Positions 29,638 to 30,462 of a DNA stretch of 44,068 bases are shown here, piece after piece. The translations under genes and the position numbers were made by a program. The stretch's first letter is position 1. Each line of letters begins with the position of its first letter. The stretch lies in the IMG/VR virus record IMGVR_UViG_2541047745_000010; one strand, written 5' to 3'. The notes below the pieces were generated by a model. That model was not told the DNA's origin. It worked only from the letters and a program-made list of their open reading frames with translations, and did not search any database. This stretch comes from a virus. Its lineage: Duplodnaviria > Heunggongvirae > Uroviricota > Caudoviricetes.

Positions 29638-30462
29638 TCATCGTAAAATATCCTCCACACCTACCAACCCGTTCTGCTTCAGATATTCCATCGCCTTATC
29701 AGGCAAGCTGCTTAAACTATTGGCGTACTTTAAGGAGTGAGCCAGACGCTTAACCCACATTGTTAATTCGCTAACCTGGTTACCTGGCACTGGCGACGCT
29801 ACTGTCTGTTCCAGAACGTCATCAGGTACTACCGGCTCTACTGCCAACTGACTGGCATATTTGTTAATGGTAACGATAAGCTCTTGCTCGGCCTCATCCA
29901 GACAATCACCAACACCTCGCCTGTCACCGTCAAAATCATCGAAATCGGCACGAATCCTGGCAACCTCCCGGATTGCGGACAACACTTCACCAGGAATTAG
30001 CGGAGAGTTGGTTGACGTTTCCGAAATTTCCCGAAAATTATTGGTTGACGAATCCTTGTTTTCCCGAAAGTTTCCTGACTGAAGCATGGCTTCGCGGCAA
30101 TCGTTCCATCCTTCAGCATAATCACTATACGCAAGAGGCCAACCTCTTATGTATTCACGCGGCAACTTATCAGGCACTACCAGCGCTGGCGATGATGCAT
30201 AAAGTGGTGTTATTTTTGCCCGAAAATCACCTACTTTATGCAGTCGCACCCACCGTTCGACTTCTGCTTTGTCAGAATACATAGCGGTGAACGTATTATA
30301 TTCATGGTCAATTTGCGTGAAGGTTGCCTTCCACGCCACCGGCTCTGCTTCCAGCGATGCCAGCGCAATCCGTGCCAGTTCCATTTGTTCACCACGGGTA
30401 AGCCCGTTTTCAAGCGGGTTTTTAATGAACAATTCAATACGTTCTTTGGTAATAGTGGTCAT
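29638..30462 (-). CDS. hypothetical nin-region protein with an internal 11-residue tandem repeat
   Basis: 274 aa; ATG with AAGGAG RBS; contains a 33-bp tandem duplication (30007..30073). Confidence 0.6.
   Translation of the reverse strand: MTTITKERIELFIKNPLENGLTRGEQMELARIALASLEAEPVAWKATFTQIDHEYNTFTAMYSDKAEVERWVRLHKVGDFRAKITPLYASSPALVVPDKLPREYIRGWPLAYSDYAEGWNDCREAMLQSGNFRENKDSSTNNFREISETSTNSPLIPGEVLSAIREVARIRADFDDFDGDRRGVGDCLDEAEQELIVTINKYASQLAVEPVVPDDVLEQTVASPVPGNQVSELTMWVKRLAHSLKYANSLSSLPDKAMEYLKQNGLVGVEDILR
30007..30073. repeat. two tandem ~33-bp repeats (ttggttgacg ... tttcccgaaa) inside a coding region
   Basis: ttggttgacg at 30008..30017 and 30041..30050, each followed by tttcccgaaa within 20 bp. 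Confidence 0.5.

Follow-up and report, generated by a model that had tools for sequence, protein, structure and literature searches.

The 33-bp tandem repeat carried by the gene at positions 29638–30462 (minus strand) of the viral sequence analyzed here—a stretch of 44,068 nucleotides, hereafter the window—is in our judgment quite probably an old in-frame duplication of 11 codons, which duplication lies in what appears to be a disordered linker of a mosaic prophage accessory protein associated with Eaa and DUF551. In the scheme that we propose, the linker would join the N-terminal part of the protein (residues 1–129) to a C-terminal helical part (residues 158–274), and units would be lost or gained either by replication slippage or by unequal homologous exchange between boxes that the units share. 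Homologous recombination inside the cassette surrounding the repeat would swap the N- and C-terminal modules, which process could explain why that cassette is so widely shared; the peptide itself would act as a flexible spacer only, its exact length being of little consequence, and the repeat DNA would be devoid of any cis-acting role.

The repeat and the gene that contains it

In protein order, unit 1 occupies positions 30041–30073 of the minus strand (AAC TTT CGG GAA AAC AAG GAT TCG TCA ACC AAT, encoding NFRENKDSSTN, residues 131–141) and unit 2 positions 30008–30040 (AAT TTT CGG GAA ATT TCG GAA ACG TCA ACC AAC, encoding NFREISETSTN, residues 142–152); on the plus strand, 30008–30040 reads TTGGTTGACGTTTCCGAAATTTCCCGAAAATTA and 30041–30073 reads TTGGTTGACGAATCCTTGTTTTCCCGAAAGTTT. 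A direct comparison of these adjoining copies gave 25/33 identical positions at a period of 33, and a repeat search of the window returned the same pair as 32 nt at 78% with a spacing of 33. The first-pass annotation had described a tandem 33-bp duplication that produces an in-frame 11-residue protein repeat, which description was borne out, both units lying in frame within the 274-aa ORF; of the span that it gave, 30007–30073, the end is correct and the start falls one base before the true one at 30008. The two short motifs that it had reported as each occurring twice in tandem do so, TTGGTTGACG being found exactly twice in the window, at 30008 and 30041, and TTTCCCGAAA likewise, at 30027 and 30060, with 33 bp between the members of either pair. 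The second motif, which had been called nearly palindromic, is merely a 4+4 inverted repeat (TTTC/GAAA) around CC. The 33-bp pair is the sole adjacent repeat in the 44-kb window with a period of 24–60 and an identity of at least 75%, and any such repeat arose in 1 of 30 shuffled windows; the output of Tandem Repeats Finder at a minimum score of 30 did not include the pair.

A Shine–Dalgarno sequence, AAGGAG (30469–30474, minus strand), situated 6 nt 5' of the ATG and overlapping the TAA stop codon of the upstream 87-aa gene, supports the translation of the 274-aa frame. Two antisense ORFs on the plus strand (29973–30284 and 29861–30082) were rejected because the sense frame possesses that strong Shine–Dalgarno sequence along with hundreds of homologs, and they were ruled out as well by the in-frame fusion of the sense frame to DUF551 in relatives.

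The protein is a mosaic of significant partial PHROG matches, as expected of an Eaa-like accessory protein: phrog_5117 matches residues 1–129 (1.8e-31), phrog_14306 residues 117–242 (1.2e-50), and phrog_660 the tail, residues 227–274 (5.5e-33), phrog_660 and phrog_924 together spanning residues 221–274. A Pfam search of the protein gave no family at E ≤ 0.01 and no DUF551 (PF04448) match reaching the Pfam gathering score, and sequence searches of NCBIfam, PADLOC, and the PDB gave no match. An identical protein (P0121) is called "Eaa protein" on 55 public contigs. One RefSeq record, NZ_CP124436.1 (our locus L001), presents the same gene differently: there PGAP gives two pseudogene fragments, at L001 positions 9361–9486 and 9700–9825 (window 29998–30123 and 30337–30462), named "DUF551 domain-containing protein, partial" and "hypothetical protein, partial," while the underlying 274-aa ORF is intact; which splitting looks like an annotation artefact arising from the mosaic make-up of the protein.

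The window matches a Rac-like lambdoid prophage of E. coli, and the 274-aa gene is 100% identical in strain AVS0790. On the minus strand the gene is preceded by a ydaT/O-like/ydaV (DnaC-like)/DUF1627/DUF977 block, a 158-aa gene, an XF1762/Mom-like gene, and the 87-aa gene, and is followed by hokD/sok, DUF1367, DUF1364, DUF1133 (Q-like), and the lysis genes; its earlier designation as a nin-region gene is therefore right as to position, since the gene has the replication genes on one side and DUF1367/DUF1364/DUF1133 (Q-like) on the other. Directly downstream is a hok/sok-type toxin–antitoxin locus (29028–29352, minus strand), in which the ORF at 29028–29240 matches Pfam HOK_GEF (1.8e-23) and positions 29178–29352 match Rfam sok with 118 bits. 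Between this locus and the stop codon of the 274-aa gene there is a GC-rich hairpin (29521–29553) with a 13-bp stem, CAAAAACCCCGGA...TCCGGGGTTTTTG, and with A/T runs on either side, which structure looks like a bidirectional terminator.

The upstream neighbors at 30738–31268 and 31232–31708 (both on the minus strand) include the XF1762/Mom-like protein, which matches PHROG 1384 at 2.5e-42 and Pfam Mom under the cutoff of that family, and the 158-aa protein, whose C-terminal part matches positions 76–143 of phrog_660. Since the tail of the 274-aa protein matches positions 146–193 of that same family, parts of a single family are distributed over two genes. The same operon contains a 39-nt dispersed direct repeat (core CTCTCCTTTGATGCGAATG) at three minus-strand gene ends, at 30730–30768, 31224–31262, and 32154–32192. 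In the first two of these copies the coding strand reads ATT CGC ATC AAA GGA GAG TGA (..IRIKGE-stop), and AAAGGAGAG serves there as the ribosome-binding site of the next gene in addition; the 39-nt repeat has the appearance of a conserved boundary sequence between genes, such as has been proposed to serve in module exchange.

A DNA-conserved linker cassette within mosaic genes

Among the relatives of the 274-aa gene the repeat constitutes the core of a cassette of about 45 codons, GWNxCRxAMLQSG–unit 1–unit 2–SPVIP, which in the window extends over 29992–30126 (minus strand; residues about 113–157) as AEGWNDCREAMLQSG, the two units, and SPLIP. At the DNA level this cassette is common to hundreds of prophage and P1-like genes from E. 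coli, Shigella, and Salmonella. A search with residues 94–215 retrieved 495 relatives, and one with the whole protein more than 7,600, mostly as partial matches; many of the relatives that share the linker carry PF04448/DUF551 after it. The 389 linker-bearing sequences that we collected fall into about 37 N-side clusters—roughly two dozen when fragments and artefacts are subtracted—and 10 C-side clusters, and exhibit 57 combinations of the two. The C-side clusters are of three kinds, marked by EVLSAI..ADFDDFDGDRRG (as in the window gene), by GWISCSERMP (the start of DUF551), or by LLPGGFTI.

The limits of the shared segment could be read from BLAST endpoints in 120 IMG/VR loci, picked solely by the 18-nt unit junction from among the matches listed: homology to the window gene starts at residues 113–125 in 117 of these listed loci and ends at residue 157 in 65 of them, and only a handful of the 120 share the whole gene. 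A 166-nt cassette probe found matches in 773 of 5426 complete E. coli genomes (about 14%), at 858 chromosomal and 154 plasmid places, with match endpoints at probe positions 44–47, 116, and 133, which positions flank the repeat. In phages, the cassette was matched in Stx-converting, Shigella, and Salmonella phages as well as in the P1-like P7 and SJ46; and in one homolog (L083) the gene is located in the ea region, between recT/yqaJ and xis/int, and not in the nin position. A scan of 596 Gb of genome contigs for the 18-mer unit junction yielded 52 matches, in unrelated phyla and with none in Enterobacteriaceae, about 70 being expected by chance according to our own arithmetic for both strands and two two-fold positions. 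The linker and its short flanks form a cassette whose DNA hardly differs among many genes that are otherwise dissimilar, with mosaic breakpoints on both sides of the cassette.

The AlphaFold2 model of the 274-aa protein, built on a 77-sequence alignment, is weak overall (mean pLDDT 55, pTM 0.29); within it, residues 129–158 have pLDDT values below 50, with 10-residue block means of 32 and 30 that are the minimum of the protein, while residues 41–90 score 76–83 and helices are modeled from residue 158 on. This low confidence suggests disorder at residues 129–158, to the extent that a prediction can, and is not a proof of it. The composition of the segment is polar, being rich in N, S, T, E, R, and K, and the relatives P0106, P0213, and P0028 carry unrelated polar linkers, such as GAENAETPTTMQTAPALDSSPKIAESTSGNSPVIP, at the same position. 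A lowest-confidence stretch between better-modeled parts, together with unrelated linkers in the same place, fits a flexible interdomain linker. The features expected of a disordered linker—low predicted order between better segments, though in a model weak overall; a polar composition; and a length and sequence that vary while the flanking modules are kept—were all found, the last of these as one, two, or three units or as unrelated linkers.

Variation of the units and its competing explanations

Two units are present in 351 of the 389 collected sequences (about 90%), in which figure, as in the others of this kind, the samples are redundant and were in part picked by similarity to a two-unit query. 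The two-unit junction occurs in at least 120 IMG/VR stretches, and every repeat-spanning match among 60 spread rows of E. coli genomes had the two-unit length, so that two units may be preferred rather than neutral. The first-pass annotation had proposed a survey of copy number among related prophages and had held that a repeat fixed at two copies would count against its interpretation; that survey revealed alleles of one, two, and three units, and the repeat is accordingly not fixed. Such variation in itself says nothing about protein binding. Nor does the repeat change by frequent switching, as a phase-variable or contingency locus would: the 33-bp unit stays in frame, and two units dominate.

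Alleles with a single unit are represented by 4 and 3 IMG/VR stretches that match patterns specific to the two possible deletion products and by several protein clusters, among them an entire lineage from E. coli and Salmonella whose N-module is ..GGWNSCRAVMLQSG; some of these alleles are on long contigs, of 109 and 175 kb. All are clean 33-bp deletions whose junctions lie in boxes common to both units, AAYTTTCGGGAA being the 5' box and TCAACCAAY the 3' one. In L086, L082, and L207 the first codon of unit 1, AAC, is followed by TTTCGGGAA and the body of unit 2, which arrangement places the crossover in TTTCGGGAA; in L083, L087, L210, and L211, by contrast with the foregoing order, the body of unit 1 is followed by TCAACCAA and a C from unit 2, so that the last codon is the AAC of unit 2 and the crossover is placed in TCAACCAA. 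The sole three-unit allele that we found, at 5828–6372 of L106 (ENKGSSTN-NFREISETSTN-NFREISETSTN), has a middle unit that is 32/33 identical to the last one and ends in AAT, as would be expected of the reciprocal product. The gene there is broken by a CAG→TAG change and by a 1-nt deletion inside unit 1, which lesions leave ORFs of 71 and 127 aa, the latter carrying the GWISCSERMP start typical of DUF551. In P0189, finally, the two units are identical (IAET). Whole units have been gained and lost rarely and in exact 33-bp steps, with slippage or unequal exchange as the presumable route, and the length of the linker is tolerated: one-unit, three-unit, identical-unit, and unrelated-linker versions all exist.

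The founding duplication cannot be called recent, as had been suggested, because in all 42 distinct two-unit DNA alleles the units are identical at 23–26 of the 33 positions and differ at 7–10. The unit-specific differences (NK-N/D-SS versus I-A/S-ET) are, moreover, common to dozens of mosaic genes, which distribution makes the duplication older than the spread of the cassette; what is recent are rare derived alleles only, such as that of L106. The variants inside the two units comprise 13 nonsynonymous and 3 synonymous changes, or a ratio near 1.2 per site, whereas the cassette flanks have 0.41 and 0.73, a difference indicating weak constraint on the peptide. The repeat also has less synonymous variation (3 variants per 14.4 sites) than the flanks (32 per 49 sites), which deficit we attribute to the homogenization of a recombination-active patch; some constraint at the nucleotide level would also explain it, the counts being small.

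These observations bear on three other readings of the repeat. The peptide NFRExxxxSTN might be a short linear motif with a binding partner in the host or phage, its two copies being selected for avidity, in which circumstance the linker would be more than a spacer; and indeed both units retain NFRE and STN in almost every allele, two units dominate, and the cassette persists beside many different modules. Against this possibility, one-unit alleles persist in whole lineages, among them intact genes in contigs of more than 100 kb, unrelated linkers can stand in the place of the cassette, and the nonsynonymous-to-synonymous ratio within the units is about 1; while the conservation of NFRE and STN reaches the third codon positions, which extent speaks for shared recent DNA ancestry rather than for peptide selection. 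We therefore regard a binding motif as improbable. The cassette, including the repeat, might alternatively be maintained at the DNA level as a recombination adaptor, in which capacity the duplication would make it a longer target. A patch of about 135 bp that hardly differs among the mosaics has breakpoints on either side, the repeat shows less total and less synonymous variation than the flanks, a comparable conserved joint, 39 nt long, is present at three neighboring gene boundaries, and models involving boundary sequences exist in the literature (PMC3233612); yet a passive origin gives the same pattern, exchange succeeding in any shared patch without selection, cause and consequence are inseparable by the sequence comparison made here, and a 33-bp duplication adds little homology, so that for the repeat we hold such a role to be rather less probable still than that of a binding motif. 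That the cassette of about 135 bp as a whole is a selected adaptor for domain shuffling, a landing pad for homologous recombination among temperate enterobacterial phages and P1-like plasmids, likewise seems to us unlikely; if it were so, about two dozen N-terminal modules would have been combined with several C-terminal effector modules through it, and the landing-pad function would account for the reduced synonymous variation of the repeat.

The remaining reading, and the one that we consider the least probable, is that a phage protein binds the two copies as cis-acting DNA sites, whether iterons, operators, or an antisense promoter with TTGACG as its −35 element. A spacing of 33 bp, or about three helical turns, between two direct copies that each have a weakly symmetric TTTC-CC-GAAA core would suit such sites, as would a sigma-70-like match of 9/12 at 30012–30041 on the plus strand. 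But the copies are only two, the 10-mers are at the shuffle level (4 versus 4.3 expected and 5 versus 3.9), and the window contains no further copies beyond chance at up to 1 mismatch; promoter-like matches in the region are likewise at chance (3 versus 2.1), the RNA folds no more stably than shuffled sequence (z = +1.2), and Rfam recorded nothing at the repeat, its sole nearby match being sok. Nonsynonymous changes, furthermore, alter the repeat at about the same per-site frequency as synonymous ones. Iterons would be looked for as three or more regular direct repeats in or next to an initiator gene, with an AT-rich region, and at a position fixed relative to the replication module in related phages. 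The repeat instead lies about 4 kb away from the O-like gene (34193–34981) and the DnaC-like gene (33440–34186), which have repeats of their own, and the same DNA is found inside homologous genes at quite different genome positions, as in the ea region of L083, the P1-like phage–plasmids P7 and SJ46, and the 154 plasmid places of E. coli. The proposal of a protein-binding iteron consequently finds no support: the motif is not enriched, the repeat is part of a coding linker far from the replication genes, and it travels with the protein module to the ea region and to P1-like plasmid prophages.

In and just upstream of the O-like gene, at 34496–35014 of the window, there are other repeats, TCTTCC in 3.5 copies (34551–34571) and TTTGTAACCGCCCG in 2.2 copies (34638–34669), as well as palindromes, TTGTAACGCCGCGAGCGTTACA at 34801 and TTGTAACGCTCGCAGCGTTACA at 34993; which elements are more plausible as origin or operator candidates than the 33-bp repeat. 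The resemblance that had been noted between the repeat and a motif near the supposed att sites could not be substantiated either. The 9-mer in question, AATTTCGGG, occurs at 1229–1237 and 43423–43431, once near each end of the window (0.65 occurrences expected; 11 of 100 shuffles had two or more), and is absent from the repeat, which shows AACTTTCGGG and AATTTTCGGG on its coding strand. The overlap between the two is a 7-mer, TTTCGGG/CCCGAAA, that has 14 occurrences in the window, and we found no direct repeat of at least 12 nt between the end regions 900–1500 and 43100–43700. Small tandem repeats adjoin both copies of the 9-mer, at 1207–1226 and 43405–43429.

Comparison with known systems

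Our preferred reading, a duplication within an interdomain linker, is of little weight alone: it strikes the repeat from the list of iteron candidates and explains it otherwise. Its wider value is modest, and resides in a countable example of the gain and loss of units by slippage or unequal exchange at short homology boxes, and in an example of module exchange at a conserved joint that is inside a gene, at a domain boundary. The presence of the cassette in about one-seventh of the complete E. coli genomes means that it could mark the frequency of domain swapping in prophage accessory genes. The case also flags an annotation problem, an intact mosaic ORF having been recorded as two pseudogene fragments in the RefSeq record cited above.

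In phage lambda, four iterons of about 18–19 bp are located beside an AT-rich stretch within the initiator gene and are bound by O. The present repeat is like those iterons in that both are direct repeats of weakly symmetric core situated within phage coding sequence, but differs in that the units are two, the gene is an unrelated accessory one some 4 kb off, an AT-rich neighbor is lacking, and further copies are absent. With in-frame repeats of the minisatellite type it has in common that the alleles differ by exact whole units—one, two, or three—with their junctions in shared boxes; unlike minisatellites, however, it has a very low copy number, changes rarely and without frame shifting, and is composed of units that have diverged by about 24%.

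Mosaic ea22 variants and portable DUF551 domains have been documented (PMC10834534). The gene studied here resembles those for the mosaic Ea22/Eaa/DUF551 proteins of lambdoid phages, which belong to the exo–xis and nin regions, in being a small accessory gene of the early region with portable modules, whereas its 274-aa product has neither a DUF551 domain nor an Ead_Ea22 coiled coil according to Pfam; and in the literature that we searched we found no description of a duplicated NFRExxxxSTN linker. Short conserved boundary sequences have been proposed as recombination targets, with module boundaries at the limits of genes or domains (PMC3233612), long-standing ideas for which that article cites Susskind and Botstein (1978) and Clark et al. 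(2001). The lambdoid boundary sequences are like the cassette in being short, DNA-conserved stretches between unrelated modules, with homology breakpoints at their edges, and are unlike it in that the joint here is intragenic, falls at a domain boundary, and encodes a linker; boundaries of the between-gene kind are also nearby in the window, at the IRIKGE-stop joints. Viewed beside these systems, the repeat is a slippage-prone interdomain linker at a mosaic joint, and as such a new, if unremarkable, example of in-frame linker duplication.
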